A stretch of 64,000 nt of DNA from an uncultured Collinsella sp. (lineage in GTDB: Bacteria; Actinomycetota; Coriobacteriia; Coriobacteriales; Coriobacteriaceae): positions 97,593 to 161,592 of the forward strand of contig UQIV01000001.1 of NCBI GenBank assembly GCA_900541205.1, written 5' to 3'. This document shows positions 15,943 to 43,337 of the stretch, one piece after another (the stretch's first letter is position 1; every line of letters starts with the position of its first letter). The translations under genes and the position numbers were made by a program. The notes under the pieces were generated by a model. The model saw only the letters and a list, made by a program, of their open reading frames with translations. It was not told the origin of the DNA and searched no databases.

Positions 15943-15977
15943 CACCTCGCTGACCTGCATATTTATAAATATTAAAG

Positions 15978-16046
15978 GGGACGGGCCCCAGATTGCCGAG
16001 ACGCACTTTTGCGCGCATGGGCAATCTGGGGCCCGTCCCATTTTTC
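15978..16046 (+). terminator. very strong terminator after xerD
   Basis: Perfect 20-bp stem GGGACGGGCCCCAGATTGCC/GGCAATCTGGGGCCCGTCCC with a 22-nt loop, then ATTTTT. Confidence 0.8.
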
Positions 16047-16059
16047 GCCAGACATCGAC

Positions 16060-16330: not shown

Positions 16331-16404
16331 TATTATTGATGACGTCGACAGGCGGGGTGGTTCCCCGCGTACGTGCCATCTGAGTAACCGAGGGGAGGGC
16401 GCAC

Positions 16405-16839: not shown

Positions 16840-16859
16840 GGGCAAGGCACGAGTAACGG

Positions 16860-17825: not shown

Positions 17826-17915
17826 ACGCGACCGCGCGATATTGGACCTCCCGCTCGCACCATAAACGAAGCTTAGACACACTACCAACGTACTCGGGAT
17901 GGGAGGCGGCATATC

Positions 17916-18386: not shown

Positions 18387-18403
18387 CAAGACGGTAGCTG
18401 AGT

Positions 18404-20269: not shown

Positions 20270-20394
20270 GGGGTTACAATCTTGAGCGTGGTCTGCCGTT
20301 TGATCTGAAGGGTGTTCACATGCCCTGCACCACGCGCGCATGGCACTGGGATACAATACGCCGATAGCATTATTAGGTTTACAGGGGAGCTGCA

Positions 20395-21819
20395 ATGATA
20401 GAGATCGCCGTCAACAACCTCGCGGCCTCAACGGGGGCCCGAACCGTGACGGAAGAAGTCGATCGGGTATGCCGCGGGTGCGTTATCGACTCGCGTCAGG
20501 TCGAGGAGGGGACGATCTTTGTCGCCTTCCCCGGCGAAAAGGTCGACGGCAATGATTTTGCCTCCCGTGCCATCGAGTCGGGTGCCGGTGCCGTTGTGAT
20601 GACGCGCGAGCCCGATGCCGAGCTGGTTTCGTTGGCGCAGGACAAGGGATGCGCCATCTTGCTGACCGACGACCCCGAGGAGTTCTTGCTGCGCCTGGCG
20701 CATGTATATCGTTTGGAGCTTGGCTGCCTGGTCGTCGGCATTACCGGTTCGATTGGCAAGACGACGACCAAGGACGTGCTCGCCGCCGTGCTCGCCAAGC
20801 GTTATCGCGTCTGGGCCACGAAGGGCAATTTCAACAACTTGATCGGCATGCCGCTCACGGTGCTTTCCGCTCCGGCCGATACCGAGGTCCTGGTGCTCGA
20901 GATGGGCATGAACCATTTTCATGAGATTGAGCGCCTGTCCCAGTCTGCCAACCCCAATCTTGCCATCGTGAGCAAGATCGGAACCTCCCACATCGGTATC
21001 CTGGGCAGCCGCGAGAACATCGCCCGTGCCAAGTCCGAGATTGTCCAGGGCATGTGCGCCGCCGGCGACTTCTCGCCGCTGCTGGTTTTGGGCGGCGAGG
21101 ACGACTTTACGCCGTTCATTCGCGATACGTTCGCCCAGCCTGCGGGTATTGACGTGATGCTGGCCGGTGTCTCGGACGACGACGAGGTCCGCGCGCGCGA
21201 CATTCGCGTCGACGACGAGGGCCATCCGGTCTTTACGCTCGACTTTGGTCAGGGCGACACGGTCGATACCATGTTGGCTATTCCCGGTGTGCAGTCCGTG
21301 CCCAATGCCGTCAAGGCCGCCGCGGTCGCCTATCGTCTGGGCGTGACGCCCGAGCAGATCGATGCTGCCTTTAGGGGCCTTACGATCACCGGTCACCGTC
21401 AGGAGATCAAGCGCGCCAAGAGCGGAGCACGCATCATCGACGACTCCTATAACGCCAGTGCCGAGTCTATGGCTGCCGGCCTCGATTTGTTGTGCTCGCT
21501 CATCTGTGACGGTTCGCGCATGGCGATCCTGGGCGAGATGGGCGAGATGGGTGACGAGGCTCCCCGCATGCATGAGCTCGTGGGCGCCTATGCCGCCGCC
21601 AAGAAGCTCGACATGCTCGCGTGCGTCGGCGGCGAGCTGGCTCAGCTCATGGCCGATGCCGCACGTATGATGGGTATGGATGAGGACCGCATCCAGGTGT
21701 TCTCCGATTATCAGCAGGTGCTCGACCGCATGGGCGGCGCGCTTGAAAATCATGATGTTGTACTGGTCAAGGGTTCCCGTTTTGTTGAGCTCGACCGCTT
21801 TGTGGAAGGTGTGTGCTAG
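20395..21819 (+). CDS. murF: UDP-MurNAc-tripeptide--D-alanyl-D-alanine ligase
   Basis: VIDSRQVEEGTIFVAFPGEKVDGNDF, VVGITGSIGKTTTKD and the MurF-specific KGNFNNLIGMPLT signature. Confidence 0.85.
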   Translation: MIEIAVNNLAASTGARTVTEEVDRVCRGCVIDSRQVEEGTIFVAFPGEKVDGNDFASRAIESGAGAVVMTREPDAELVSLAQDKGCAILLTDDPEEFLLRLAHVYRLELGCLVVGITGSIGKTTTKDVLAAVLAKRYRVWATKGNFNNLIGMPLTVLSAPADTEVLVLEMGMNHFHEIERLSQSANPNLAIVSKIGTSHIGILGSRENIARAKSEIVQGMCAAGDFSPLLVLGGEDDFTPFIRDTFAQPAGIDVMLAGVSDDDEVRARDIRVDDEGHPVFTLDFGQGDTVDTMLAIPGVQSVPNAVKAAAVAYRLGVTPEQIDAAFRGLTITGHRQEIKRAKSGARIIDDSYNASAESMAAGLDLLCSLICDGSRMAILGEMGEMGDEAPRMHELVGAYAAAKKLDMLACVGGELAQLMADAARMMGMDEDRIQVFSDYQQVLDRMGGALENHDVVLVKGSRFVELDRFVEGVC

Positions 21820-28414: not shown

Positions 28415-29326
28415 ATGGGTCTCTTTAACGCCGTCATGGCGCTTTCGGGCATGATCGACACGGACGTGGTCGAGGACGAACGTCTTGCACGCCATACAAG
28501 CTATCGTATCGGCGGCAAGGCCGACCTCTTTGTGACGTGCCATAGCTACCATGCCCTGCGTCGCGCCGTGGCGGTGCTTGACCGCGAGCAGGTGCCGTGG
28601 GTGATTATCGGTAAAGGGTCCAACCTGTTGGTTGCCGATGCCGGTTATCGCGGCGCCGTTATTTCGCTGGGACGTGAGTTTCAGCGCACAGTTGTTGCCG
28701 AGGACGGCTGCACGCTGACCGTTGGTGCGGGCGTGATGTTCGCGCGTTTGGTCAACGACGCCTTGTCGCGCGGGCTTTCGGGCCTTGAGTTCGCGGTCGG
28801 TATTCCCGGTTCGGTCGGCGGCGCCGTGTCCATGAACGCAGGAACGCGGACCGAGTGGATCGGCTCCCTTATCGAGGACGTGGTCACGTTTGATCCGGCG
28901 TCCGGTATTAAGCACTATGCAGGGTCCGAGATCGCTTGGGGGTATCGCGAGTGCAGCTTGCCGCGTAACGAGATCATTCTTGAGTGCGTGCTTAAGCTCA
29001 AGGCCGCGCCCAAGGCCGACATTCGCGAGCGTATGGAGCGGTATCTGACGCGCCGCAAGCGCACGCAGCCCATGGGCCGTGCATCCTGCGGATCGGTCTT
29101 TCGCAACCCGCCCGACGCAAGCGTGGGCAAGTTGATTGAGGATTGTGGATTAAAGGGTTTTTCGGTTGGCGGTGCGGAAGTTTCGCCCGTACACGCTAAT
29201 TTTATCGTTAACAACGGAACCGCCTCGGCCGATGACGTGGCCGCGGTTATCAGGCATGTGCACGGAAAGGTGAGGGAGGCGTATGGCATCGAGCTCAGAC
29301 CGGAAGTTAAATTCCTCGGCTTCTAG
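28415..29326 (+). CDS. murB: UDP-N-acetylenolpyruvoylglucosamine reductase
   Basis: FAD-binding RIGGKADLFV and IIGKGSNLLV motifs, 303 aa. Confidence 0.85.
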   Translation: MGLFNAVMALSGMIDTDVVEDERLARHTSYRIGGKADLFVTCHSYHALRRAVAVLDREQVPWVIIGKGSNLLVADAGYRGAVISLGREFQRTVVAEDGCTLTVGAGVMFARLVNDALSRGLSGLEFAVGIPGSVGGAVSMNAGTRTEWIGSLIEDVVTFDPASGIKHYAGSEIAWGYRECSLPRNEIILECVLKLKAAPKADIRERMERYLTRRKRTQPMGRASCGSVFRNPPDASVGKLIEDCGLKGFSVGGAEVSPVHANFIVNNGTASADDVAAVIRHVHGKVREAYGIELRPEVKFLGF

Positions 29327-30548
29327 AGCATCGAAACCAACCTTCCGCCGCGCCGGAGGGCGTTCCGGCGCACCTGCCCAGCTTCAACATAAGCCCGCCA
29401 TGCCCTCCAAGTCTGTTGGGCCCGTTCGTCCTGCCAAGCGCCCGGTCGTCGGCTCGCAGCTGGGAGGACGCCCCGCTTCTAAAAAGACGAGTCGTCCGGC
29501 TCCGCGTCCTTCGGTGACGCCCAAGCCGGCGATGGGCGCCAAGACCTCCCGACCCATGGCGACGCCCAAGCCTTCGCTGGGAGCTCGTGCGCCGCATGCC
29601 GGCCGTACGTTGGCTGGCGCTAAGCCGCGTTCACTGACATCGGTGCCCGCTGCCAAGGCGTCTTCGGCAAAAAAGGGCATCAATCCTCTGTCATCGCTTG
29701 GTGCCATGGCAGGTAAGGCGACCGACGCCGCTTCTGCCATGAAGGGTAAGGGCAAGATCGCGGGCGGCATCCTAGCGGCCGTGGCCGTACTTGCCATTGT
29801 TGCCATCGTCGTCATTAACTCCGGCCTGTTTTCCGCCACCGATATTCAGATTCATGGCAGCGAGCATGTGACCAAGCACGACGCCATGCAGCTCATCAGT
29901 CTTCCCGAGAATACGTCGCTCTTTAACGTGGATCCCGATCAGATCACCGAGGGCCTCAAGCAAAACCCGTGGGTCTCGGGCGTGGATGTCCAGCGCCAGT
30001 TTCCCCATACGCTTATCATCACGCCGACGGAGCGTAAGGTTATCGCCATTGCGTATATCAGCTCCGATGACCTTGCCTGGGCTATCGGAGACGATGACAC
30101 CTGGATTGCTCCGCTGTCGACGTCTGTCGAGGTGGACGACCAGGGGAACGTCATTACATCGGGGGAGGGTGCCAAAACCCTGACCGGCATCGATGCGGCC
30201 CTGGCGCTTGCCAAGCACTACGGCGCCGTGCTGTTGACTGACGTCTCGGCCGATGTCGCACCGGTTTCGGGTCGGGCGGTGAGCTCCAAGGCCGTCAAGG
30301 CCGGCCTGGATTACGCACGCGGCTTTTCGAGCGAGTTCTTGGACCAGGTGAAGGATATTTCCACGCCTTCCGTTGAGGCTATCTCGGCAAATCTCGACAA
30401 CGGCGTCGAGGTGTCGCTGGGCGATTCGGACGATATCGCCAAGAAAGAACGCATCGTGACCAAGCTACTTTCGCAGGTAGAGGGCGTGACCTATATCAAT
30501 GTGCGCTCTCCGGGCAACTACACGTTTAGGAACGCACCGACCGCCTAG
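29283..30548 (+). CDS. ftsQ: cell division protein FtsQ/DivIB
   Basis: About 150-aa basic, Pro/Ser/Ala-rich cytoplasmic tail, then a TM segment (IAGGILAAVAVLAIVAIVVI) and a POTRA-like domain (TDIQIHGSEHVTKHDAMQLISLPENTSLFNVDPDQI). The start is uncertain and overlaps the murB end. Confidence 0.7.
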   Translation: MASSSDRKLNSSASRASKPTFRRAGGRSGAPAQLQHKPAMPSKSVGPVRPAKRPVVGSQLGGRPASKKTSRPAPRPSVTPKPAMGAKTSRPMATPKPSLGARAPHAGRTLAGAKPRSLTSVPAAKASSAKKGINPLSSLGAMAGKATDAASAMKGKGKIAGGILAAVAVLAIVAIVVINSGLFSATDIQIHGSEHVTKHDAMQLISLPENTSLFNVDPDQITEGLKQNPWVSGVDVQRQFPHTLIITPTERKVIAIAYISSDDLAWAIGDDDTWIAPLSTSVEVDDQGNVITSGEGAKTLTGIDAALALAKHYGAVLLTDVSADVAPVSGRAVSSKAVKAGLDYARGFSSEFLDQVKDISTPSVEAISANLDNGVEVSLGDSDDIAKKERIVTKLLSQVEGVTYINVRSPGNYTFRNAPTA

Positions 30549-30747
30549 CATCCTAAACGGCTTTGTTGAGGGGCCACACCACGCCGTTTATCTGGTTTGT
30601 TTGGTTTTCACGGTCAATTATTTGACTGAAACGTTCATAATGTGCAAACATAATACGGTTTACCTTTGCATTTACTTTCAACCTGAAGGTTAATGTGCGC
30701 AGGGGTCAACCCATGCTATGGCTATAACCTTTGTTCGGAGGACCGAC

Positions 30748-31902
30748 ATGCACGAGACAGAGATCAACAACTACCTTGCCGTCATTAAGGTGGTCGGCGT
30801 CGGCGGCGGCGGTACCAACGCGGTCAATCGAATGATCGAAGAGGGCATCCGCGGCGTCGAGTTTGTTGCCATCAACACCGATGCTCAGGCGCTCGCGATC
30901 TCTGATGCCGATATCAAGGTGCACATCGGCACCGACCTTACCCGCGGCCTGGGCGCCGGCGCCAACCCCGAGGTTGGCCGCAAGGCTGCCGATGAGTCCC
31001 GCGACGATATCGCCGAGGCGCTCGCTGGCGCCGACATGGTGTTCATCACCTGCGGCGAGGGCGGTGGTACCGGTACCGGCGCTGCTCCCATCGTTGCCGA
31101 TATCGCGATGAACGAGGTCGGTGCGCTGACCGTCGCCGTCGTGACCAAGCCCTTCACCTTCGAGGGACGCAAGCGCAAGAAGAGCGCCGAGGAGGGCATC
31201 AAGACCCTCTCCGATTGCGTCGACACCATGATCGTTATCCCTAACGACAAGCTGCTCGACATCGCCGAGAAGAAGACCACGATGCTCGAGGCGTTCGCAA
31301 TTGCCGATGGCGTCCTTTCCCAGGGCACCCAGGGCATCACCGACCTCATCACCGTCCCGGGTATCATCAACCTGGACTTCGCCGATGTTAAGACCATCAT
31401 GAAGCAGGCCGGTACCGCCATGATGGGTATCGGTACCGCTTCTGGGGACACCCGTGCCGTCGACGCTGCCCAGCAGGCTATCTCCAGTCCGCTGCTCGAG
31501 AGCTCCATCGATGGCGCCACGCGCGTCCTGCTTTCCATCGCCGGCTCCAAGGACCTGGGCATCCAGGAGATCAGCGACGCCGCCGACGTTGTCGCCAATG
31601 CTGTCGACCCCGAGGCCAACATCATCTTCGGTACCGTTGTTGACGAGTCCCTGGGCGACCAGGTGCGCATCACCGTTATCGCTACGGGCTTCTCCGACTC
31701 CAACGTCAACCGTCAGGACGAGCTCTTCGCTGCCCAGCAGTCCCAGAGCAAGGCTGCTGCTTCTGCTGAGCCGCAGCGCACTGCTCCGACTGCCAGCCCC
31801 GCTCAGGCTGCCCCGACTCGCAACGTCGGTGGTACCGAGCTGCCCAACTTTGGCAACGATCAGTTTGAGCTTCCCGACTTCCTCAAGCGCGGCAGCTTCT
31901 AA
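30748..31902 (+). CDS. ftsZ: cell division GTPase FtsZ
   Basis: [22 protein letters not shown] tubulin GTP-binding signature. Start at MHETEI with the RBS GGAGGA 6 nt upstream. The ORF track starts at 30718. Confidence 0.9.
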
Positions 31903-31925: not shown

Positions 31926-31958
31926 CAGGGGCGCGTCCGTATGGATGCGCCCTTTTTG
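31926..31958 (+). terminator. terminator-like hairpin after ftsZ
   Basis: GGGGCGCGTCCgtatgGATGCGCCC followed by TTTTTG. Confidence 0.5.
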
Positions 31959-32112
31959 TTTCTCGTTTGTAAACGAAAGCCTCCAATCTCCTTACGTTCC
32001 CTTTACGTTTGGTCCCTACCGCTGCGGGTATCCTTTTAAACAAGTATGACAGCCGTATAAACACGGACTGCGCGGCGACGCCGCGGTACTTGTTGTAATA
32101 GGAGGCTTTAGT

Positions 32113-32913
32113 ATGGCAGCACGTGCGGACAACGTTTCGCGTGTCGACCATGATGGAGTTACGTTGGTAGAGGGCGCGACGCACGATGTCCGCTTTGCCT
32201 TTACCGAGCGCACCGGTGGCGTTTCCGAAGACGCGTACTCCTCGCTCAATCTGGGCTCGCATGTAGGCGATGACCCCTTTGCCGTTCAAGAAAATCGTCG
32301 TCGAGCGCTCGAGGCCATGGGCGCCGCCGAGTGCGAGCACAACTTGCTTGTCCCCAATCAGGTACACGGTGACCATGTCGTGACGGTGACCTCGAACGGC
32401 GCCGAAGATCTCGAGAACATTCGTGAGCAGATTGCCGAGGGCTGTGATGCCCTCGTCTGCACGGCGCATAAGGTGCCCGTGATGCTCTGCTTTGCCGATT
32501 GTGTTCCCGTGGTGCTGGTGGTTCCCGGCGGCTTTGCCGTGGTGCATTCTGGCTGGAAGGGCACGATTGCGCGCATTTCCGCCAAGGCCTGCCAAGCACT
32601 CTGCGACGCGGCTGGCTGCAAGCCGGAGGACATCTCTGCCTATATTGGGCCCCATATCCTGGGCGACGAGTATGAGGTGTCCCAAGAACTTATGGATCGC
32701 TTTGCCGCCGAGTTCGCGTGCATCGATGCTACCGCTTCCCGTATGCTCGATCTTTCCGCCGCCATTCGCGAGGCGCTGGTGGATGCCGGTGTCGATGTGA
32801 ATGGCATTGTGGACACCAAACTTTCCACCGTGCGTCAAAACGACCGCTTTTATTCCTATCGCAACGAGGGCGGGACCTGTGGGCGCCATGCTGCGATCGG
32901 CGTGATGCTATGA
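32113..32913 (+). CDS. YfiH/PgeF family (laccase-domain, purine nucleoside phosphorylase-like) protein
   Basis: DUF152 hallmarks HSGWKG and the CFADCVPVVL His/Cys region. It holds the conserved position after ftsZ seen in Gram-positive dcw clusters. Confidence 0.8.
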   Translation: MAARADNVSRVDHDGVTLVEGATHDVRFAFTERTGGVSEDAYSSLNLGSHVGDDPFAVQENRRRALEAMGAAECEHNLLVPNQVHGDHVVTVTSNGAEDLENIREQIAEGCDALVCTAHKVPVMLCFADCVPVVLVVPGGFAVVHSGWKGTIARISAKACQALCDAAGCKPEDISAYIGPHILGDEYEVSQELMDRFAAEFACIDATASRMLDLSAAIREALVDAGVDVNGIVDTKLSTVRQNDRFYSYRNEGGTCGRHAAIGVML

Positions 32914-33746
32914 GAAAGATCGCATCGGTCCTGAGTGCAGCAGTGCTCGCGCTCACGCTGTGCGCCTGCTCCTCGGGATCTTCTACCTCTTCCATCACCG
33001 TGGCCGGCTCGACCACCTGCCTTCCCATTGCCGAGATTGCGGCCGAGGGCTTTAAGGAAGAGACCGGCATCGACGTGCTCGTCTCCGGCCTTGGCTCATC
33101 TGCTGGCATCGAAGCTGTTAGCGCCGGCACCGCCGACATCGCCAGCTCGTCTCGTGGCCTCAATGCCGACGAGCAGGATTTGGGCCTGACGCCTATCGTT
33201 ATCGCACACGACGGCATTGCAGTCATCGTGAACGACGACAACCCGGTCGACAATCTCTCGACCGAGCAGCTCCGCGATATTTACGCCGGCAAGATCACCA
33301 ACTGGAAAGAAGTCGGCGGAGAGGACCTGAAGATTCAGGTTATCAACCGCGACGAGGCGTCCGGTACGCGCGAGGCCTTCCGTACCATCGTGATGGACGG
33401 CACGCCGTTCGATCGCCGCTCGGCTGTTCTTTCGGGCACGGGCCAGGCACGCGATGTCGTGTCCCGCTCGCGTGGCGCCATTGGCTACATCTCGCTTGGT
33501 TTTGTCGAGAGCCTCAACGCCAAGACCTCGGTTAAGGCCGTTTCGGTCAACCATGTCGAGGCATCCGAGAAGTCGGTCGCAAGTGGCGGCTATCCCATCT
33601 CGCGTGACCTTTACTTCTTTGTGAAGGGTACGCCTTCACAGCAGGCGCAGGACTACATCGACTATGTGACGTCCGAGAAGATGGACAAGCAGATTCGCGA
33701 GGCGGGCTTTATTCCCGTCACCAACGACGGAAAGGGGAGTGAGTAG
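32910..33746 (+). CDS. pstS: phosphate ABC transporter substrate-binding lipoprotein
   Basis: MRKIASVLSAAVLALTLCACSS lipoprotein signal, then a PstS-type PBP domain (TVAGSTTCLP...SGLGSSAGIEAV). The ATG overlaps the yfiH TGA in an ATGA arrangement. Confidence 0.85.
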   Translation: MRKIASVLSAAVLALTLCACSSGSSTSSITVAGSTTCLPIAEIAAEGFKEETGIDVLVSGLGSSAGIEAVSAGTADIASSSRGLNADEQDLGLTPIVIAHDGIAVIVNDDNPVDNLSTEQLRDIYAGKITNWKEVGGEDLKIQVINRDEASGTREAFRTIVMDGTPFDRRSAVLSGTGQARDVVSRSRGAIGYISLGFVESLNAKTSVKAVSVNHVEASEKSVASGGYPISRDLYFFVKGTPSQQAQDYIDYVTSEKMDKQIREAGFIPVTNDGKGSE

Positions 33747-34671
33747 CGTGGAAGCACAGGAAACCCCCCAGGTTGAGCATGAGGCGCAGGCGCCCAAAAA
33801 GCGTGAGTTGGCGTTGGTGTCACGCAGCACCTATCTTAAGGAGAAGGCGCTGCAGTGGATTTTCTTTGCCTGCGCGTTCTTGGCGGTCGTCACCGTCATC
33901 CTGATTTTTGTCTTTACCACGTACTCGGCGCTGCCGGTCTTTACCGACATCGGTCTGGCGGACTTCTTTAGCTTTACGTGGGCGCCCTCTGAGGGTCACT
34001 ACGGCATTATGTCGCTGCTAGCGGGCTCTGGCCTGGTGACGGTCGGTGCGCTCGCCATGGGCGTGCCCCTGGGTGTGGGTACGGCTGTGTATCTGGTCGA
34101 GATTGCCAGCAAGCGCGTGCGCAAGCTCATCAGCCCCGCCGTCGATCTGCTGGCGGGCATCCCCTCCATCATCTACGGTTTCTTTGGCATGGTCATCATC
34201 CGCCCGTTTATCGCGCAGCTAACCGGCGGCCTTGGCTTTGGCGCGCTGACAGCGTGGTTCGTGCTCGCCATCATGATCGTCCCCACCATTACGACGCTCA
34301 CCATCGATGCCCTCAATTCCATTCCCATGGGCATTCGCGAGGCGTCCTATGCCATGGGTGCCACCAAGTGGCAGACCATCTACAAGGTCGTGCTTCCTGC
34401 AGCCAAGCTGGGCATTGTCGATGCGATTGTCTTGGGCATGGGGCGTGCCATCGGTGAGACCATGGCCGTGCTGATGGTCGTGGGCAACGCCCCGGTCATT
34501 CCGGATAGCATCTCGAGCCCCATCTCGACGCTCACGAGTCAGATTGCGCTCGATATGAGTTATTCCTCGGGCCTGCACCGCTCGGCTCTGTTCGGCATGG
34601 GCGTTGTCCTGTTTATCATCTCCGCTGCACTGGTGGGTATCGTCCGCCTGATTTCCAAGAAGAGGGGGTAG
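33739..34671 (+). CDS. pstC: phosphate ABC transporter permease PstC
   Basis: Polytopic permease with the EAA-like motif region ...GIREASYAMGATKWQTIYKVVLPAA... GTG start overlapping the pstS end. Confidence 0.85.
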   Translation: MSSVEAQETPQVEHEAQAPKKRELALVSRSTYLKEKALQWIFFACAFLAVVTVILIFVFTTYSALPVFTDIGLADFFSFTWAPSEGHYGIMSLLAGSGLVTVGALAMGVPLGVGTAVYLVEIASKRVRKLISPAVDLLAGIPSIIYGFFGMVIIRPFIAQLTGGLGFGALTAWFVLAIMIVPTITTLTIDALNSIPMGIREASYAMGATKWQTIYKVVLPAAKLGIVDAIVLGMGRAIGETMAVLMVVGNAPVIPDSISSPISTLTSQIALDMSYSSGLHRSALFGMGVVLFIISAALVGIVRLISKKRG

Positions 34672-34674
34672 GCT

Positions 34675-35580
34675 ATGTCCGATTCCGTTGACACGACGGT
34701 CGATACGACCTCGTCGCGTGAGCGCATCAAGCGTGCCCTTTCCCATGGCAAGAAGGGCCGCATCAACAAGGATCTGTCCAACAAGATCATGCTCGGCGTG
34801 TTTCGCGCCGCGGCCTATATCACCACGCTGGTGCTGATCGCCATCATCGCCTACGTGGTCATCAACGGCCTGCCGCATATCTCGCTCGACTTTATCTTTG
34901 GCTGGCCCCAGGGCGTAAACGCCGAAGGCGGCATTTGGCCCACGATCGTCTCGACCATCTACGTGACGGCGCTTGCCATGCTCATCTGCACGCCGGTTGC
35001 CGTCCTGGCTGCGGTCTATCTGGCCGAGTACGCCAAGCAGGGCAAGGTCGTCGATATCATTCGCTATGCTGCCGATGCCCTGGCCTCGGTGCCCTCCATT
35101 GTTATGGGCCTCTTTGGCTACGCCTTGTTTGTCGAGGCTATGGGTCTGGGCCTTTCGATGGTCTCGGCCGCCCTGGCGCTGGCGCTTCTGATGCTCCCCA
35201 TCGTCATGCGCACCACCGAGGAGGCAATCCGCGCCGTTCCACGCTATATCCGTTGGGGCGCATATGGCCTGGGCGCCACCAAGTGGCAGGTCGTCTCCAA
35301 GATTGTGCTTCCTTCGGCTTTTGGCCGCATCGCCACCGGCATCGTGCTTGCCATCGGCCGCGCCATCGGCGAGACCGCCGTGGTGCTCTACACCATGGGC
35401 CAGGCCATCAACCTGCCTATTTCGCCGCTCGATTCCGGTCGTCCCATGACCGTTCACCTTTATCTGCTTGCCAATGACGGCATCAACATGAACGCAGCCT
35501 ACGGCACCGCGCTTTTGCTGATGGCGATTATTCTGGCCTTCAACCTGTTTGCGCGCTATCTGTCGCGCAAGCGCCGCTAG
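34675..35580 (+). CDS. pstA: phosphate ABC transporter permease PstA
   Basis: Second permease with ...EEAIRAVPRYIRWGAYGLGATKWQVVSKIVLPSA..., 301 aa. Confidence 0.85.
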   Translation: MSDSVDTTVDTTSSRERIKRALSHGKKGRINKDLSNKIMLGVFRAAAYITTLVLIAIIAYVVINGLPHISLDFIFGWPQGVNAEGGIWPTIVSTIYVTALAMLICTPVAVLAAVYLAEYAKQGKVVDIIRYAADALASVPSIVMGLFGYALFVEAMGLGLSMVSAALALALLMLPIVMRTTEEAIRAVPRYIRWGAYGLGATKWQVVSKIVLPSAFGRIATGIVLAIGRAIGETAVVLYTMGQAINLPISPLDSGRPMTVHLYLLANDGINMNAAYGTALLLMAIILAFNLFARYLSRKRR

Positions 35581-35592
35581 TTAAGGAGTCCC

Positions 35593-36396
35593 ATGTCCGT
35601 CTATCAGTCCGCTCCCACGCCGGAGCAAGCGGCCATCACGGCCAAGGATTTCAACTTTTGGTACGGTGACTTTCACGCGCTGACGGGGCTCGACCTCAAC
35701 ATCGCCAAAAACGCCATCACCTCGTTTATCGGCCCTTCGGGCTGCGGCAAATCGACGTTTTTGCGCTGCATCAACCGTATGAACGACCTTATCGAGGGCA
35801 CCCGCGTCGAGGGCACCATGACGCTCGACGGCAACGATATCTATGCCGAGGGCGTCGACCCGGTCGACCTTCGCCGCCGCGTGGGCATGATTTTTCAGCA
35901 GCCCAACCCGTTTCCCAAATCCATCTACGAGAATGTCGCTTTTGGCCCTCGTCTGCAGGGCGTGACTAGCAAAAGCGACCTCGATGACATCGTGGAAGAA
36001 TCTCTCAAGCGCGCCAACCTCTGGAAAGAGGTATCCAATCAGCTCAACAAGGATGGTTTGGCGCTCTCGGGTGGTCAGCAGCAGCGTCTGTGCATCGCGC
36101 GTGTGCTTGCGGTGCAGCCCGATGTCCTTCTGATGGACGAGCCCTGCTCCGCCATCGACCCCACGTCCGTCTCTAAGGTCGAGGATCTGATGGCCGAGCT
36201 GGCGCCCGAGATGACGATCATCATCGTCACGCATTCTATGCAGCAGGCCGCTCGTATTAGCGACTACACCGCATTTTTCTTGCAAGAAGTTGCCGGCGAG
36301 CCCGCCACGCTCATCGAGTATGGTCAAACCGACGCGATCTTCACCAGCCCGGCGGATTCGCGGACGGAAGACTATATCACCGGCCGCTTTGGCTGA
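35593..36396 (+). CDS. pstB: phosphate ABC transporter ATP-binding protein
   Basis: Walker [10 protein letters not shown], signature [16 protein letters not shown] and Walker [12 protein letters not shown], 267 aa. Confidence 0.9.
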
Positions 36397-36488
36397 TCGG
36401 TGCGACTAGTCCCAAACCGATCGGACCTGGTCCGGTGCGTATTCACTGTGCGGGCGGCATGACCGCACCCAACTGATTGGAGTGAACC

Positions 36489-37346
36489 ATGCGCAAACTG
36501 TTTTCCCGTCAGCTCATCGAGGCCCGTCACGAGATGCTGAGCATCTACGAGGCTGTTGACCTGGCGCTTCACGACGCCGTGAAGGCCTATGTGACCGACG
36601 ATCGCAAGCTCGCCACCAAGACCAAGAAGCGCACGCTTTCGATTGACGCGCGTTGCGCCAACTTGGAGGCCGTGTGCTACAACCTGATCGCTACGCAGTC
36701 GCCGGTCGCCTCCGACTTCCGCTTGCTGCAGACAATCATCTACGTCGACTTTAACCTGCAGCGCATGACCGATAAGGTTCGCCAGGTCTGCCGCGCCACG
36801 CGTCACATGGTCAAGGCCGACATCTCGCTGCCTCAGGAGCTTGTCGGTACGGTTGAGGCCGAGGCCGAAGCTGTTTACCAGGTGCTGGGTTCGTCGATTT
36901 CTGCGCTCGTCACCAACGACATGTCCATCATCTGCAATCTGGCCGTCGAGGACGGGCCGGTGCATGCGGCGTACGAGAAGTTCTTCCGTACCTTCAACCG
37001 CATGGATGCCGGCGAGTTTATGGATGACAACAGCAATTACGACGACCTGCGCCGCGCCATTATGGTTTCGCGCTACCTCGATCGTATCGCCTCGATTTCC
37101 ATCGATGCTGCCTGTCGTCTGACCTTCCTGTTGACTGGTCAGCGTATGAATGCCGGCGATATCGCCCGTACGGATGAGGATGAGCTCGAGAGCATGCGCG
37201 TGCCTTCGGGCGAGGGCGTCATCATGAGGCCCGCCGTCGACGCGCGTTACGTTGCCAAGGTGCCCGCTAACGAGGTCAGCGAGGGTCTTCGCTACCTGCT
37301 CGATCATCTTGAGGATGAGGACGATGGCGAGGACGACGAGGAGTAA
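36489..37346 (+). CDS. phoU: phosphate signalling regulator PhoU with an acidic C-terminal tail
   Basis: Two PhoU-like helical repeats. The C-terminus ends DHLEDEDDGEDDEE. 285 aa. Confidence 0.75.
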   Translation: MRKLFSRQLIEARHEMLSIYEAVDLALHDAVKAYVTDDRKLATKTKKRTLSIDARCANLEAVCYNLIATQSPVASDFRLLQTIIYVDFNLQRMTDKVRQVCRATRHMVKADISLPQELVGTVEAEAEAVYQVLGSSISALVTNDMSIICNLAVEDGPVHAAYEKFFRTFNRMDAGEFMDDNSNYDDLRRAIMVSRYLDRIASISIDAACRLTFLLTGQRMNAGDIARTDEDELESMRVPSGEGVIMRPAVDARYVAKVPANEVSEGLRYLLDHLEDEDDGEDDEE

Positions 37347-37382
37347 GTAACCCCGTTCGTCGAAAGATTGTAAATACCTAAG

Positions 37383-37420
37383 TGAGCGCGGCCTTGCACA
37401 TGCGGGGCCGCGCTCTTGCG
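37383..37420 (+). terminator. hairpin after phoU
   Basis: Perfect 10-bp stem GAGCGCGGCC/GGCCGCGCTC with a 12-nt loop, then TTGCGTT. Confidence 0.45.
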
Positions 37421-37465: not shown

Positions 37466-38203
37466 ATGGATAACTATTTGGACTTGATGCGCGCTCGCCG
37501 CGAGCAGATTCTGGAACGTTTTTATGCGGCGCTCGATCGCGCAGGCCGCCCCCACGACGCCGCGCGCCTCATTGCCGTGTCAAAGACCGTTGGTGTCGAT
37601 GAGACCGTTGCCGCCATCCAGACGGGGTATCGCCATTTTGCCGAGAACCGCCCGCAGGAGCTGGTTCGCAAGCTCACGGGTCTGGCGGAGCATCCGGAGC
37701 TGCCCGAGGTGCGCTTCGATATGATCGGGAACCTGCAGACCAATAAGATCAATGCGGTGCTGGGCTCAGCCGAGCTGATTCACTCGGTGGGTTCGCTGCA
37801 TCTGGCGCAGGCGATCTCGAGCCGTGCTGCCCGCAAGATTGAGGCAGGCGAGCTCGCCGGCCCTCAGCGTGTGCTCATTGAGGTCAATGTGAGTGGTGAG
37901 GAGTCGAAGGGAGGCTTTTCGCCCGATGAGATTCGCGCCGCCGCGGGCGAGCTTGCGGAACTTGAGGGAATTTGCGTACAGGGGCTTATGACTATGGCGC
38001 CTCGGGGGAATAAGGATGTGGCACGCCGCACCTTTGCGGGGCTTCGTGAGCTGAGGGATGAGCTGGAGGCGGCGCATCCCGATTTGAACCTGCCTGAGCT
38101 TTCCTGCGGCATGAGCGAAGACTTTGAGCCTGCCCTTGAGGAGGGCTCTACGCTCGTTCGCCTGGGCAGGGTAGTATTTAGCCCGGAGTTTGCAGTAAAA
38201 TAA
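37466..38203 (+). CDS. yggS: YggS-family PLP homeostasis protein
   Basis: LIAVSKTVGVDETVAAIQTGYRHFAENRPQEL shows the alanine-racemase-N fold with the PLP-Lys. Start at MDNYLD. The ORF track starts at 37382. Confidence 0.8.
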   Translation: MDNYLDLMRARREQILERFYAALDRAGRPHDAARLIAVSKTVGVDETVAAIQTGYRHFAENRPQELVRKLTGLAEHPELPEVRFDMIGNLQTNKINAVLGSAELIHSVGSLHLAQAISSRAARKIEAGELAGPQRVLIEVNVSGEESKGGFSPDEIRAAAGELAELEGICVQGLMTMAPRGNKDVARRTFAGLRELRDELEAAHPDLNLPELSCGMSEDFEPALEEGSTLVRLGRVVFSPEFAVK

Positions 38204-38263
38204 GGCTCTGAAGTGCGCACTGATTATCGGGGCGCCTGCACTAAACCGCGAGAGGACACAACC

Positions 38264-38986
38264 ATGGGCTTCCTTGACGAGATTAAAAATAAGATGCACC
38301 TGGGCGGCCAGCAGGGTTACGACCAGGGTTATGGCCAGGACGACGACTACGGCTACGATGATGGCTATGACGATGGCTATCAGGGCAACGGCTACAGCGG
38401 TGCTTCGGGCGAGGGCTTCTACACCCAAGACGAGCCGAGCAACGGCCTGCTTGGTCAGACGCGCCGTGGTGAAGCTGAGTCGGTTGCCGTGTATACACGC
38501 TCCGGGCAGCTGGTCGGCGATGACTCCCGCCATGCCACGACGTATAACCCGCCTTCGCGCTCGCAGGACAGTGTTGCGAGCGGTTATCGTCCTGGTGCCT
38601 ATGACACGCCGTCGAGCTACGCCGAGAACACCCGCGCCCGTGCCGCCGCTGCGCCCGCGCCTACACCGAGCGATGCCTCGGCCTATGCGAGCAATATCAT
38701 CAACGCCACACCGCAGCTGCCGGCCTATGTCCTGCGCCCCGAGAGTTATGACGACGTGGAGACCGTGGTGCGTCGCGTTCGCACCAAGCAGCCTGTCGCA
38801 CTGATTTTTGTGGGCGTACGTACCGAAGTTGCCAAGCGCGTCTTGGACTTCTCTTACGGCTTTGCCTGCGGTCTGGGTGCTACGGTCAAGGAGGTGGGCG
38901 ACCGCGTGTTCATGGTGCTGCCCGCCGGTTGCGAGGTCAAAGATTCCGATCTCAAGAAGCTTCGTGCGGACGGCTACCTTAAGTAA
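38264..38986 (+). CDS. sepF: cell division protein SepF
   Basis: The C-terminal SepF domain (PVALIFVGVRTEVAKRVLDFSYGFACGLGATVKEVGDRVFMVLPAGCEV) is preceded by a Tyr/Gly/Asp-rich low-complexity linker. Start at MGFLDEIKNK. Confidence 0.8.
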   Translation: MGFLDEIKNKMHLGGQQGYDQGYGQDDDYGYDDGYDDGYQGNGYSGASGEGFYTQDEPSNGLLGQTRRGEAESVAVYTRSGQLVGDDSRHATTYNPPSRSQDSVASGYRPGAYDTPSSYAENTRARAAAAPAPTPSDASAYASNIINATPQLPAYVLRPESYDDVETVVRRVRTKQPVALIFVGVRTEVAKRVLDFSYGFACGLGATVKEVGDRVFMVLPAGCEVKDSDLKKLRADGYLK

Positions 38987-39001: not shown

Positions 39002-39289
39002 ATTCCCATCAACATCTACACTATCGTCCAGCTGGTCAACACGCTGTTCAACTTCTATTCCACGCTCATTGTCGTCTACTGCTTTATGACGTGGATTCCC
39101 ATGAAGCAGGGTGGTTTGCTTCAGGATATTGCCGCGGTGCTTGATAGCGTGTGCGGTCCGTGGCTCAACCTGTTCCGTCGTTTCATCCCGCCGATGGGCG
39201 GTATCGATTTTTCGCCGGTCGTTGCGATTATTGCGTTGCAGTTGGTGCAGAGGCTGGTTCTGCAGCTTCTTATAGGTATACTCGTGTAG
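39002..39289 (+). CDS. yggT: YggT-family small membrane protein with no canonical start codon
   Basis: The conserved YggT N-terminus (IYTIVQLVNTLFNFYSTLIVVYCFMTWIP) is in frame directly after the sepF stop. There is no ATG, GTG or TTG before it. GAGGAG at 38995-39000 precedes ATT (39002) and ATC (39008). The ORF track only calls from the internal Met at 39086. Confidence 0.5.
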   Translation: MPINIYTIVQLVNTLFNFYSTLIVVYCFMTWIPMKQGGLLQDIAAVLDSVCGPWLNLFRRFIPPMGGIDFSPVVAIIALQLVQRLVLQLLIGILV

Positions 39290-39350: not shown

Positions 39351-40025
39351 ATGGCTATTACCCCTGCAGACATCCAGGCTCAGACTTTCTCTGAGGCCAA
39401 GCGTGGCTACGATCCTGCCGAGGTCGACGTCTTCTTGGAGACGCTGTCCTCTGAGGTTGACGCTATGCTCGCTAAGATCGTCGACCTTAAGGGTCGTCTG
39501 ACTGCTACCGAGCAGCAGCTTGCCGATGCGCAGGCTCAGCTTGCCCAGGCTCAGGATGCCCCCGCCCAGGCCGTTCCTGCCGCCCCCGTGGCTGCTCCCG
39601 CCCCTGACTTCTCCGCTCAGGAGCGCCAGATTTCCGCTGCCCTGATCGCTGCCCAGCAGACCGCTGAGACCATCGTCAACGATGCCAATGAGAACGCTGA
39701 GCGTATTCGCAACGAGGCTGACGCCAAGGCCCGCGAGGTTATCCGCCAGGCTCTGACCGAAAAGCAGGCCGAGCTCGAGGAGATCGATCGTCTCAAGGCT
39801 TCCCGTGAGGAGTTCAAGGCAGAGTATCTCAAGCTCATCCAGCACTTTATGGACGATGCCCAGAATTCCTTCCCGGCCGATCTGATGGCCTCCACGCCGG
39901 TCGGTTCTGCCGCTTCTCCTGCAGTGACTGTTCCCGCCGAGCCGCTGCCCGTCGCTGACCCGGTTGTCCCCGTGGCCGATCCCTTCGCCCCGATCGACAA
40001 CTTCGCTGCCGACGACCTGGACTAA
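39351..40025 (+). CDS. divIVA: DivIVA (Wag31-like) coiled-coil cell division protein
   Basis: MAITPADIQAQTFSEAKRGYDPAEVDVFLE is a conserved DivIVA N-terminus, followed by a coiled coil. 224 aa. Confidence 0.85.
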   Translation: MAITPADIQAQTFSEAKRGYDPAEVDVFLETLSSEVDAMLAKIVDLKGRLTATEQQLADAQAQLAQAQDAPAQAVPAAPVAAPAPDFSAQERQISAALIAAQQTAETIVNDANENAERIRNEADAKAREVIRQALTEKQAELEEIDRLKASREEFKAEYLKLIQHFMDDAQNSFPADLMASTPVGSAASPAVTVPAEPLPVADPVVPVADPFAPIDNFAADDLD

Positions 40026-40082: not shown

Positions 40083-40191
40083 TGACTGTACCGGGGCGCG
40101 CAACATAAAAAACCGAGCCCTGCACATAGTGGCGCAGAACTCGGCGAACCGGTGAGCGGTCAAGGATAGGTTTTAGGGCATGTCCCAAAAT

Positions 40192-40722
40192 CTACTTGAG
40201 GAGGAAGTCGGAGAGGGGAATGGTACGGGCCTCGCGATGCTCGGAATCGGCGATGTGGTCGGCAGGATAGCCACAGACGAGCATGTGATAGGGATAGACG
40301 CCCTTGGGCGGGTTGAACTGCTCCTGTGCCACCTCGGGCTTAAAATGGCATACCCAGCACGTTCCCAGGCCCTGCTCGGTGGCCTCCATCATCATCTGAT
40401 CGCACACGATGGACGTATCGATTTCACTGGAATTCATCTTGTCATACGGGCGCACCCAAGCATCATCAGTAACGCTGCAAATAAGGAAGACAAGCGGAGC
40501 CCCAAAGATAGACCCATCACGAGCAAACCGAGGCTGACAAGCAGCAGCCTTCTCCAGAAGCTCAGGCGTATCCAACACCATCACACGGGTTGGATGATTA
40601 TTACAAGCAGAAGGAGCAATACGCCCAGCCTCAACAATGGCATCCACCACAGCTTGCTCAACAGCCCGATCTTCAAACTCACGACAAGAATACCGACCCC
40701 GAGCCAGATCCAAATAAGACAT
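40192..40722 (-). CDS. nitroreductase-family flavoprotein
   Basis: Start at MSYLDLARGRYSCREF. SACNNHPTRV and the following core are typical of NAD(P)H nitroreductases. 176 aa. Confidence 0.7.
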   Translation of the reverse strand: MSYLDLARGRYSCREFEDRAVEQAVVDAIVEAGRIAPSACNNHPTRVMVLDTPELLEKAAACQPRFARDGSIFGAPLVFLICSVTDDAWVRPYDKMNSSEIDTSIVCDQMMMEATEQGLGTCWVCHFKPEVAQEQFNPPKGVYPYHMLVCGYPADHIADSEHREARTIPLSDFLLK

Positions 40723-40905
40723 ACAAGCCCTCCAACAATTAAAAATCAAACAAACCCAAAGTAACCCAAACAGTACCCAAAGCAGCAATCAGCCAAACGC
40801 TCATCAAGGGCCAAAGTGTCCGAACGGATACCAAAGGTCCCTTCAGCCAAACCCCCATTGCGCTAAACCTATCAGCCAAAGTTCCCAATGGTGGTGCATA
40901 AGGGA

Positions 40906-40983
40906 GCGGGCCCGGCCACTAATAACCTTTTGAACGACTCTGCTTGCAGCCGGAGTGAAAAAGGTATTAGTGGTCGGGCCCGC
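40906..40983. repeat. long imperfect inverted repeat (~24-bp arms, ~30-nt loop) downstream of the DUF47-pit operon
   Basis: GCGGGCCCGGCCACTAATAACCTTTT ... AAAAAGGTATTAGTGGTCGGGCCCGC. Confidence 0.5.
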
Positions 40984-41007
40984 GACCGGTGGGATACGTA
41001 CCCCCAA

Positions 41008-41631
41008 TTAACTGTTCTTCATGACAATCGAATCCACGACATCGGCCACATTCTCGCAGCAGTCGGCGCAGTACTCCAGGAATGCGTAGACGTCACGCCA
41101 GGCGATGACCTCGAGCGGATCCTTGCCGTTAACGTGCAGGTTGCGCATGGCATTGATGTAGAGTTCGTCGGCCTCGGACTCGATGGTGTTGATCTGGATG
41201 ACGAGCTCGCGCAGGGTCTTGGACTTGCGGTAGTTGGGAAGCTCGACCATCAGGTCTTTCATGGCGCGGCAGGCGTCAGTCACCTTGTGGGCGATGACGA
41301 TGGCGTCGGGATGGATGCTCTGAATGTTGGTGAAGTAGACGCGCTGCACGACGCCCTCAATACGGTCGAGCACGGTGTCGAGCGCGCAGCTCATCAGATC
41401 CAGATCCTCGCGCTCGAGCGGGGTGATAAAGGCGGTGAGCAGGGCGTCTTCGAGCTCGTGGTGCTTCTTGTCTGCCGCATGCTCAATCGCATGCATCTTA
41501 TTGAGCATGTCGTGAATCTGCGCGGGATCGAAGTTCTCAAAAATCTGGGTAAGCAGCTCGGCGGCCTGGACGGCGAGGTCGGCGCAGGCGACGTAGTTGT
41601 CAAAGTAGAACGAATCGGGTTTCTTAGCCAT
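41008..41631 (-). CDS. DUF47 (PhoU-like) protein paired with PiT
   Basis: 207 aa, helical. The gene-pair context with the pit gene is typical. Confidence 0.75.
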   Translation of the reverse strand: MAKKPDSFYFDNYVACADLAVQAAELLTQIFENFDPAQIHDMLNKMHAIEHAADKKHHELEDALLTAFITPLEREDLDLMSCALDTVLDRIEGVVQRVYFTNIQSIHPDAIVIAHKVTDACRAMKDLMVELPNYRKSKTLRELVIQINTIESEADELYINAMRNLHVNGKDPLEVIAWRDVYAFLEYCADCCENVADVVDSIVMKNS

Positions 41632-41698
41632 GGGTGGGTCCTTTCGAGGCGAAGACGGGTGGGCGAAGTGTTGCGGTCCAGATGGACGTTCGGTTTGA

Positions 41699-42748
41699 CT
41701 AGAGGAACATCATGAACAGCTTGGCCATGACAAAGCTGATGAGTCCGCAGGCGGGGAAGGTGAAGAACCAGGTGAACATCATGTCCTTAACGACGCCGAA
41801 GTTGATGGCCGAGAGGCGCTTGACGGCACCGACGCCCATGATGGCGCAGGTCTTGATGTGTGTGGAGGACACGGGGATGCCGGTAAGGGTGGCAAGCAGC
41901 AGGTTCGCGGCGCCCGCGAGGTCGGCGGAGAAGCCCTGATACTTCTCGAGCTTAACCATGCTCTGGCCGACGGACTTTATGATGCGCTCGCCGCCGACGC
42001 TGGTGCCGATACCCATGGTGGCCGAGCACAGCAGCATAATCCAGATGGGGATGCCGGCATCGCCGACGCTGGTCTGGCCGTTTGCGAAGGCCACGCCTAA
42101 AAAGAGCACGCCGATGAACTTCTGTCCATCCTGCGCGCCGTGCATAAAGCTCATGGCCGCAGCGCTCGCGATCTGAGCGTATTTAAAGAAGACATTGGCA
42201 CGTCGCCTGTTGGCGGCGGCGAAAAGAATCGAGACGAGTTTGCACAGGACCCAGCCCATGACAAAGCCCAGGCCGATGGAGAGCGCCAGGCCGTAGATGA
42301 CCTTCATCCACTCGTGGACGTTGACGCTGCTCGCGCCGCCGAGGGCGATAGCGGCACCGGTCAGGCCGGCGATAAGGCTGTGGCTTTGCGAAGTGGGGAT
42401 GCCAAAACGCGATGCTGTGGCGCCGTAGACGACGATGGAGAACAGCGCTGCGCAGAGGCACGCGAGCGCCATGGTGCTGTTTCCGCCAAAGTCGACGATA
42501 TGTGAGATGGTGTTGGCGACGCTCGCATTAAAGTGCGTCATGATGAGCACGCCGAGGAAGTTGAATGCGGCGCTCATGAGAATGGCGGCGCGGGCGGGCA
42601 TGCAACGCGTAGTGACGCAGGTCGCGATGGCGTTGGGCGCGTCGGTCCATCCATTGACGAAGATGGCGCCGAGCGCGAGGATCACGGTGACGGCAAGGAC
42701 TGGGTTCGACACAATTTGGCCGAGGAAGGTTGAGAACGTTACGTCCAT
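41699..42748 (-). CDS. pit: inorganic phosphate transporter, PiT family
   Basis: GWTDAPNAIAT and MHGAQDGQKF motifs of the PHO4/PiT family, polytopic, 349 aa. Confidence 0.85.
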   Translation of the reverse strand: MDVTFSTFLGQIVSNPVLAVTVILALGAIFVNGWTDAPNAIATCVTTRCMPARAAILMSAAFNFLGVLIMTHFNASVANTISHIVDFGGNSTMALACLCAALFSIVVYGATASRFGIPTSQSHSLIAGLTGAAIALGGASSVNVHEWMKVIYGLALSIGLGFVMGWVLCKLVSILFAAANRRRANVFFKYAQIASAAAMSFMHGAQDGQKFIGVLFLGVAFANGQTSVGDAGIPIWIMLLCSATMGIGTSVGGERIIKSVGQSMVKLEKYQGFSADLAGAANLLLATLTGIPVSSTHIKTCAIMGVGAVKRLSAINFGVVKDMMFTWFFTFPACGLISFVMAKLFMMFL

Positions 42749-42977: not shown

Positions 42978-43337
42978 ATGAGTTCGATAATAGGAGGCAT
43001 GGAATATCGACAGACAGACGGCAAAACTCGGCGCGTACACAAGCAGTATGTGGACGTCGTGGCTCGCATCCTCGCGGGCGGACAAGTCGTGCCGGTCACC
43101 GTCTGCTGGGTCGACGGACGTTGTTTTACAATCGATGAAATTATCTCGACCACCGGGTTTGGCCTGACGGTCCACGGCATCCGTACGGCGACCTATAAGG
43201 TGCGTTTTGGCGGGCACGCGACCGAGTTGTATCTGGAGGACCAGACGCGCGAGCGGGCGGACGGCTCGCAGGCACACGTGATGCGTTGGTGGGTCTGGGC
43301 CTTTGATCGCACGCTCGAGGGCGAGCGCCGTAGGTAA
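42978..43337 (+). CDS. hypothetical protein
   Basis: 119-141 aa ORF with no recognisable motif. An AGGAGG sits immediately before an internal ATG at 42999, so the start is uncertain. Confidence 0.3.
   Translation: MSSIIGGMEYRQTDGKTRRVHKQYVDVVARILAGGQVVPVTVCWVDGRCFTIDEIISTTGFGLTVHGIRTATYKVRFGGHATELYLEDQTRERADGSQAHVMRWWVWAFDRTLEGERRR

Follow-up and report, generated by a model that had tools for sequence, protein, structure and literature searches.

The genes that follow ftsZ in the division and cell wall (dcw) cluster of Bacillus and Streptomyces are arranged in a canonical ylm/dcw order, ftsZ-ylmD/yfiH-ylmE/yggS-sepF-ylmG/yggT-(ylmH)-divIVA. In Escherichia coli, high-affinity phosphate uptake is encoded by pstSCAB-phoU, with phoU last, and in Clostridium acetobutylicum phoPR and pst are presumably only a few genes away from ftsZ. 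To our knowledge, practically all the pst operons studied so far are under phosphate control; in Bacillus subtilis, the PhoP boxes are TT[A/T/C]ACA hexamers repeated every 11 bp. We analyzed a stretch of 64,000 nucleotides (nt) from an uncultured Collinsella sp. (contig UQIV01000001.1; hereafter the window, numbered from its first letter), in which a complete pstSCAB-phoU operon is embedded in the division cluster and splits ftsZ-yfiH from yggS-sepF-divIVA. An earlier interpretation made from the letters of this DNA, hereafter the sequence-only reading, had reported this embedding, and both the gene order and the protein families agree with it. The host belongs to the Collinsella aerofaciens species complex, the FtsZ of the window being 97-100% identical to that of more than 70 Collinsella loci. 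C. aerofaciens is an actinobacterium that abounds in the human gut and on which, as far as we know, hardly any experimental genetics exists.

Three elements have to be considered together, namely a terminator after ftsZ, a conserved spacer in front of yfiH (pgeF) and phased repeats near phosphate genes. On this basis, the six genes pgeF-pstSCAB-phoU most likely form a self-contained operon. We lean towards the view that this operon, as predicted from these elements, is probably Pho-regulated and insulated from the mraZ-ftsZ transcripts.

The dcw transcription unit upstream ends with ftsZ (30718-31902, + strand), whose product displays the Pfam Tubulin and FtsZ_C domains. Directly after it, our terminator scan called an intrinsic terminator at positions 31927-31963 (+ strand), made of a 12-bp GC-rich stem and a GUAU loop followed by UUUUUGUUU, with a fold z-score of -3.5. 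Its structure is conserved among 13 variants of the species complex, where 11 consensus pairs are retained, none is broken and three compensatory double changes are found, and the T run is present after the hairpin in every one of these variants. A GC-rich hairpin of conserved structure with a U tract is what defines an intrinsic terminator. The more distant Collinsella have a different sequence after ftsZ, yet a hairpin and a T run are observed there in every lineage examined. In addition, the metagenome-assembled genome (MAG) that provides locus L052 (the loci fetched for comparison are designated by numbers preceded by L) carries an IS200/IS605 tnpA element (11260-12060) whose insertion point falls exactly between the terminator of ftsZ and the promoter-like region of yfiH. 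Both the terminator and the promoter-like block are intact in this locus, and such an insertion site, which leaves the two elements whole, fits with a boundary between two transcription units.

The ftsZ-yfiH spacer is 210 nt long and conserved. We recognized in it a promoter-like region (31966-32040, + strand) that comprises TTTGTAAAC, two direct repeats and the -10-like element GGGTATCCT (32026-32034, + strand). The repeats, cTTACGTT at 31991-31998 and tTTACGTT at 32002-32009 (+ strand), follow each other with a period of 11 nt and represent a candidate PHO box. When 29 unique sequences were compared, the best-conserved blocks of the spacer were TTTGTAAAC, CCAATCTCcTTACGTTCCCTTTACGTTTG, in which the pair of TTACG repeats sits, GCGGGTATCCTTTT and the segment that begins with the Shine-Dalgarno (SD) sequence and covers the first 16 yfiH codons. 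All of them are less variable than the surrounding coding sequence, synonymous sites included. Furthermore, the second repeat is separated from the -10-like GGTATNCT by 23-24 nt in all the loci carrying the repeats (72 of 72), including L084, whose PstS is 84% identical to that of the window and whose spacer sequence has otherwise diverged. Counted from the second TTAC, the distance to the -10-like GGGTATCCT amounts to 25-26 nt, again in 72 of 72 loci. Neither a scan nor manual reading revealed any pair of sigma-70 -35 and -10 elements with the canonical spacing of 16-18 nt in this spacer; because of this, we infer that the promoter would be activator-dependent.

The region between this putative promoter and the start of yfiH (32041-32112, + strand) is probably the 5' leader of the yfiH-pst transcript; a strong SD sequence, AGGAGG, is found there along with a small structured element. 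A structured regulatory RNA nevertheless receives little support: the helices are kept in the consensus fold of 14 variants, but a single pair covaries. A search of the whole window at the Rfam gathering threshold returned no family, so that no known riboswitch or leader accounts for the conserved 5' region of yfiH. Two further features of this region can be mentioned for themselves. The 61 nt that span the SD sequence and the first 16 yfiH codons (32100-32160) show only two variable sites among the 29 sequences, third codon positions included, and an additional half-site, TTACGTTGG, is located at 32157-32165 inside the near-invariant stretch at the start of yfiH. In parallel, a motif (T)TTGTAAA(C/T) is conserved both in the ftsZ-yfiH spacer (31966-31974) and in the phoU-yggS spacer (37366-37374), with no convincing -10 element at the right distance from it.

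Could the repeats be a PHO box? The exact pattern TTAC-N7-TTAC occurs a single time in the window, upstream of yfiH. In the other non-redundant loci, it was found once in L063, about 105 nt upstream of the PiT phosphate transporter gene and on the same strand, and twice, in overlapping form, in L067. The generalised pattern T[TG]AC[AG]-N6-T[TG]AC[AG] gives 10 matches in 279 kb, where Markov simulations predict 4.3 +/- 2.3, and eight of the ten, at six places, adjoin pst, phoU or PiT genes. These matches are located upstream of yfiH-pst in the window and in L084, in L081 within yfiH, some 235 nt ahead of its junction with pstS, in the spacer between yfiH and phoU in L067 and L087 (ATGACA-N5-TTGACA-N5-TTTACA), and upstream of PiT in L067; a related site is present inside yfiH in L064 and L085. 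The repeats of the window thus have the features of a candidate PHO box, with 11-bp direct repeats at or upstream of the -35 position and no good -35 element, and the motif recurs by other phosphate genes in L063, L067, L081, L084 and L087. Being obtained with regular expressions, the pattern counts constitute independent evidence for the repeats. We propose T[TG]AC[AG] every 11 nt as a candidate PHO-box consensus, to which a regulator is predicted to bind. In this genome, the interval from the ftsZ stop codon to the pstS start codon contains no second PHO-like box. Matches of the position weight matrix on the minus strand of dcw coding genes (L063 at 7942, L064 at 8269 and L082 at 3104) fall at homologous coding positions and were discarded as background.

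At the other end of the operon, a hairpin with a 14-bp GC-rich stem and a weak U tail, CUUGCGUU, follows phoU at 37384-37415 (+ strand). The sequence-only reading had already noticed a hairpin between phoU and yggS, and we only refined the coordinates of its stem. The hairpin is near-invariant among 27 unique intergenic sequences, the variants being mostly wobble-compatible. It does not possess the U tract that characterizes Rho-independent terminators, and it is because of this weak U tail that the terminator scan made no call there. The operon may end at this hairpin, which could otherwise act as a partial terminator or stabilise the RNA.

Our proposal can be formulated as follows. The insertion of pst-phoU between yfiH and yggS would date back to an ancestor of the genus Collinsella. 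Most of the mraZ-ftsZ transcripts would end at the intrinsic terminator that follows ftsZ, and a promoter in the 210-nt spacer, made of the -10-like GGGTATCCT and of the TTACG repeats around -35 to -46, would drive pgeF and pst together. These repeats, by their 11-nt phase, resemble the PHO boxes of the PhoP/PhoB family, and the spacer promoter would probably be induced by phosphate limitation. For pstS, with its weak SD sequence, reinitiation at the ATGA shared with yfiH could account for at least part of the translation, and the GC-rich hairpin after phoU would end or attenuate the transcript before yggS-sepF-divIVA.

Several observations weigh against this proposal. The arrangement of the second repeat and the -10-like element corresponds to a "-35/-10" spacer of 20 nt, which is atypical for plain sigma-70. 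Moreover, neither a mismatch search nor the position weight matrix detected a PHO-like box upstream of the PiT-DUF47 operon of the window, and the matrix was trained on the very sites that it then scored. Although the triple repeat formed by the two exact matches in L067 is situated upstream of PiT, at about 180 nt, its strand is the opposite one. In the 64-kb window, which is what our search covered, there is no two-component system. Finally, the lack of a U tract after the phoU hairpin makes read-through into yggS-sepF-divIVA possible. The absence of the motif from the PiT operon of the window, as well as the shortness of this motif, would also agree with the idea that the repeats are not a site for a phosphate regulator at all, the promoter being a constitutive housekeeping promoter of pgeF and the placement of pst a frozen accident. 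We consider this idea unlikely. The motif is indeed found at six independent places by phosphate genes in diverged species, and these regions amount to less than about 2% of the 279 kb; its spacing to the -10-like element is kept despite the divergence of the spacer sequence; and the phosphate regulation that is general among pst operons also speaks against it.

The junction between yfiH and pstS deserves the same attention. The pstS ATG and the yfiH TGA overlap as ATGA at positions 32910-32913 (...GTG ATG CTA TGA / ATG AGA AAG), as can be read directly from the sequence, and there is no intergenic space in this genome for a separate pstS promoter, two points on which the sequence-only reading was right. 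The 20 nt of this junction are invariant among 29 unique sequences, and only a weak SD-like sequence, GCGUGAU, precedes the pstS start. A stop/start overlap combined with a weak ribosome-binding site of the second gene is the signature of a coupled pair. Co-transcription of yfiH and pstS is thus the natural reading of the overlap, and translation of pstS is probably coupled to that of yfiH by termination-reinitiation.

On the other hand, one could see in the ATGA overlap a mere compaction, pst being mainly driven by a promoter inside yfiH and pgeF remaining outside Pho control. The loci L081, L064 and L085 could be taken in this sense, as they have no boxes upstream of yfiH and display PHO-like repeats inside this gene, 235-247 nt before the yfiH-pstS junction; the matches of L064 and L081 are situated within a coding sequence, the codon content of which might in part account for them. 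In the window, however, the segment is GC-rich, its best internal score is about 0 versus 27 for the upstream site, and the promoter scan revealed no sigma-70-like site within yfiH (32113-32910). The search for a PhoP/PhoB-type box in the 3' part of yfiH, which the sequence-only reading had called for, is thus negative in this genome and positive in the three other loci. We find a yfiH-internal promoter as the main source of pst expression rather doubtful.

We give equally little credit to the possibility that pst lacks a dedicated promoter and owes substantial expression to transcripts starting upstream of ftsZ, which would tie phosphate uptake to the division genes: all the genes are closely packed on the same strand, pstS overlaps yfiH and intrinsic terminators are rarely 100% efficient, but a canonical covarying terminator stands directly after ftsZ, a hairpin and a T run are found there in every Collinsella lineage examined, and the 210-nt spacer combines blocks that are better conserved than synonymous sites with a strong SD sequence for yfiH. 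The earlier statement that pst expression must in part ride on division-cluster transcripts is therefore at odds with the covarying terminator and the promoter-like spacer before yfiH, which together leave yfiH as the only division-cluster gene that pst rides with.

The identity of the genes supports an ordinary phosphate uptake system. The first cistron of the operon, pgeF/yfiH (32113-32913, + strand), encodes a full-length Cu-oxidase_4 domain (PF02578, E = 8.7e-67), its score against TIGR00726 (132.5 bits) being marginally below the 141-bit cut-off. It is followed on the same strand by pstS (32910-33746), which matches TIGR02136 with 244.6 bits (cut-off 206.6) and the Pfam family PBP_like_2 with an E-value of 2.7e-53. 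The encoded protein is a Firmicute-type phosphate-binding lipoprotein whose signal peptide, MRKIASVLSAAVLALTLCAC, and lipobox can be read from the sequence. Since this N-terminus is that of a typical lipoprotein signal peptide, this ATG is the real start. Then come the permease genes pstC (33739-34671, TIGR02138, 273.8 bits) and pstA (34675-35580, TIGR00974, 275.9 bits) and the ATPase gene pstB (35593-36396, TIGR00972, 378 bits), all on the + strand and, like pstS, above their NCBIfam equivalog or subfamily cut-offs. The distances from pstS to pstC, pstA and pstB are -8, +3 and +12 nt, so that all the genes from yfiH through pstB overlap or are at most 12 nt apart. PstSCAB is a standard high-affinity phosphate ATP-binding cassette importer, that is an ordinary Pst system, whose transport activity is predicted from these family matches.

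After a gap of 92 nt, pstB is followed by phoU (36489-37346, + strand), at the position expected in a Pst operon. Its product of 285 amino acids contains one Pfam PhoU domain and aligns with TIGR02135 over the full length of this model (residues 5-220), with 87 bits for a cut-off of 130 bits; about 65 additional acidic residues form its C-terminus (residues about 221-285). The PhoU orthologues from Collinsella, 274-293 amino acids in length, share a conserved C-terminal extension rich in D/E that is absent from typical PhoU proteins of about 220 amino acids, and they score under the NCBIfam PhoU cut-off.

The division-cluster order resumes with yggS (37466-38203, + strand; TIGR00044, 141 bits, above the cut-off), which starts at the ATG in 37466 and not at the GTG in 37382. 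Downstream, on the same strand, are found sepF (38213-38986, Pfam SepF), a short open reading frame (ORF; 39086-39289) and divIVA (39351-40025, Pfam DivIVA). The short ORF occupies the position of yggT, which is annotated there in L081-L083, and gave no match in the NCBIfam search to which it was submitted. The upstream part of the distal dcw cluster includes mraW (16860-17825), murB (28415-29326) and ftsQ (29283-30548), all on the + strand. Two other phosphate-related loci pointed out by the sequence-only reading are indeed present in the window, namely ppk1 (420-2960, - strand) and the PiT (PHO4) gene (41699-42748, - strand) with its DUF47 partner (41008-41631, - strand); the only adjustment is that DUF47 is downstream of PiT and not upstream. 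PhoU-Pst and DUF47(PitR)-PiT have been described as cognate pairs of an accessory protein and an importer (PMC13170248), and both pairs thus coexist in the window. PiT, DUF47 and a nitroreductase gene constitute a minus-strand unit (40192-42748) that converges on divIVA and is ended by a strong canonical terminator (40112-40145, - strand). Between the PiT operon and a gene of the Bax1-I family, an ORF of 112 amino acids (42999-43337, + strand) with a perfect SD sequence, AGGAGG, has no Pfam match.

How widespread is this organization? We fetched 80 loci for comparison, and seven others (L081-L087) through PstS homologs with 71-87% identity. The order ftsZ-yfiH-pstSCAB-phoU-yggS-sepF-divIVA with the ATGA junction was observed in every locus of the complex long enough to be read, that is about 70 of the 80, and this recurrence means that the arrangement is neither a chance event nor an assembly artefact. 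The operon occupies the same position in L081-L086 (PstS 74-87% identical), where the called pstS overlaps the 3' end of yfiH by 37-40 nt, and in L064 (Collinsella sp., PstS 77% identical), where 33 nt separate the two genes. It is also at this position in L087 (PstS 71% identical), where an extra phoU between yfiH and pstS suppresses the overlap; the two phoU genes of this locus are at 1968-2807 (between yfiH and pstS) and 6737-6939 (after pstB). As about 70 loci of the complex and eight more distant ones share the layout, it is a conserved trait of the genus rather than a peculiarity of this genome, and the comparison of gene orders identifies the insertion of pst between yfiH and yggS as an old, genus-level Collinsella trait. 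By contrast, the cluster is uninterrupted and has no pst insertion in Atopobiaceae, Olsenella and one Coriobacteriaceae MAG (FtsZ 71-75% identical). The notion of a lineage-specific insertion, for which the sequence-only reading proposed a synteny check, holds with regard to Atopobiaceae and Olsenella and fails within Collinsella, nearly all of which have it, an outcome that counts against the sequence-only reading by its own standard.

Two Collinsella species look like cases of secondary loss of pst. In Collinsella sp. An268 (L067), an intact phoU alone (12193-13062) stands between yfiH and yggS, without pstSCAB or any other pst remnant; PHO-like phased repeats are visible upstream of this lone phoU. 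In L063, the space between yfiH and yggS contains no pst remnant and only that of an IS3-like transposase (12058-12564, ...SRKGSCIGNGAAEQVFDYMKEEL...), whose location at the exact pst site suggests a loss mediated by an insertion sequence. We also considered a recent horizontal transfer of pst and rejected it: the pst region and its flanks have the same GC content, the layout is genus-wide, and the proteins of the Clostridiaceae, which present a parallel arrangement described below, are only about 31-33% identical to those of Collinsella, a level that does not fit with a recent transfer between the two groups.

This comparison yielded some side observations. Among the loci L001-L080, yggS is dimorphic within the aerofaciens complex, its product being either 94-96% or 67-80% identical in amino acids to that of the window while FtsZ is 99-100% identical, which points to a probable allelic replacement by recombination. 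YfiH is unusually divergent in the complex (89-98%). Lastly, L009 (CAVKNR010000028.1), labelled Sodaliphilus sp. (a Bacteroidota MAG), contains a Collinsella ftsZ-yfiH-pst locus that is 100% identical and is almost certainly a binning contaminant.

One would then wonder what would be the benefit of placing pgeF at the head of a phosphate operon. According to one study, PgeF/YfiH is an amidase with a proofreading role, which clears UDP-MurNAc-peptide precursors of Ser or Gly incorporated by mistake; its purine nucleoside phosphorylase activity was found there to be weak and without physiological relevance in bacteria (PMC12280929). Previous work had described the members of this family, among them YlmD and YfiH, as purine enzymes that act by phosphorolysis (PMC6978800). 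The functions so described provide no mechanism for a co-expression of pgeF and pst. A speculative answer, to which we attach a low probability, is that the link is functional and has arisen or been kept independently in Collinsella (Actinomycetota) and Clostridiaceae (Bacillota), PgeF being a member of the Pho regulon and starvation causing read-through into yggS-sepF-divIVA. If this were true, phosphate limitation would be the condition in which precursor editing by PgeF, or its nucleoside phosphorylase activity that consumes phosphate, becomes specifically important, and read-through past the phoU hairpin would couple the late division genes to phosphate status, in the reverse of the direction assumed by the sequence-only reading. 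The vicinity of pgeF and phosphate-regulon genes in two lineages hints at such a connection between phosphate supply and cell-wall proofreading, or the disputed phosphorolytic activity. If, conversely, the arrangement were a frozen accident, it would be of interest for comparative-genomics bookkeeping only. The potential for discovery is thus limited to the recurrent linkage of pgeF with phosphate genes and to a possible read-through from a Pho promoter into sepF and divIVA. In any case, the locus offers a testable map of promoter, terminator and operon, together with a candidate PHO-box consensus, for Coriobacteriia, and it shows a distal dcw cluster cut into three modules, mraZ-ftsZ, pgeF-pst-phoU and yggS-sepF-divIVA.

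A parallel can be drawn with the Clostridiaceae, of which we sampled four members: a Haloimpatiens locus (L079), the sole Firmicute among the FtsZ matches, and three loci obtained via PgeF proteins (L088-L090). In all four, pgeF is downstream of ftsZ and is directly followed by phoPR and/or pstSCAB-phoU. The order is ftsZ-spoIIGA-sigE-sigG-PRC-nrdR-pgeF-phoP-phoR-pstSCA in Haloimpatiens (14617-20782), and the pgeF-pho/pst region extends over 6001-12708 in Clostridium pasteurianum (L088), 6001-11364 in an assembly named C. botulinum (L089) and 6001-12693 in Hathewaya massiliensis (L090). The earlier view that Gram-positive clusters are normally uninterrupted after ftsZ was therefore too broad. 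We found no published description of this pgeF-pst layout in the literature on Collinsella pstS or on the C. acetobutylicum locus tags. As in Collinsella, the general clostridial region (ftsZ-spoIIGA-sigE-sigG-ylmC-nrdR-pgeF-phoP-phoR-pstSCAB-phoU) encodes a PstS of the PBP_like_2 type and has repeats with an 11-nt period, here of the TTAAC type, upstream of pstS. Unlike in Collinsella, phoPR lies between pgeF and pst, except that in L089 it is reduced to a histidine-kinase fragment of 78 amino acids, so that pst follows pgeF almost directly; moreover, the clostridial pst has its own long AT-rich upstream region without start/stop overlap, and yggS-sepF-divIVA do not follow. The adjacency of pgeF and pho/pst could be either ancient or convergent.

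With respect to E. coli pstSCAB-phoU, the same five functions are encoded in the same order with phoU last, and in both, direct repeats with an 11-nt period are found upstream of a -10 or -10-like element with no good -35. The repeats are TTACG/TTACA in Collinsella and CTGTCAT in E. coli, PstS is of the short Firmicute-type lipoprotein class of TIGR02136 whereas that of E. coli is of the TIGR00975 type, PhoU is divergent with an acidic tail, and a non-phosphate gene, pgeF, comes first and overlaps pstS. The Collinsella hexamers (CTTACG, TTTACG, CTTACA, TTGACA and TTTACA) resemble the B. subtilis PhoP boxes, with an 11-nt period, on the coding strand and overlapping the -35 position, but the candidate site of C. 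aerofaciens comprises only two repeats. Finally, compared with the canonical ylm/dcw cluster, the flanking genes and their order are the same, the differences being the 4.4 kb of pst-phoU between yfiH and yggS and the terminator that parts ftsZ from yfiH. Altogether, the Pst system encoded here is ordinary, and it is its genomic context that is unusual, though conserved.

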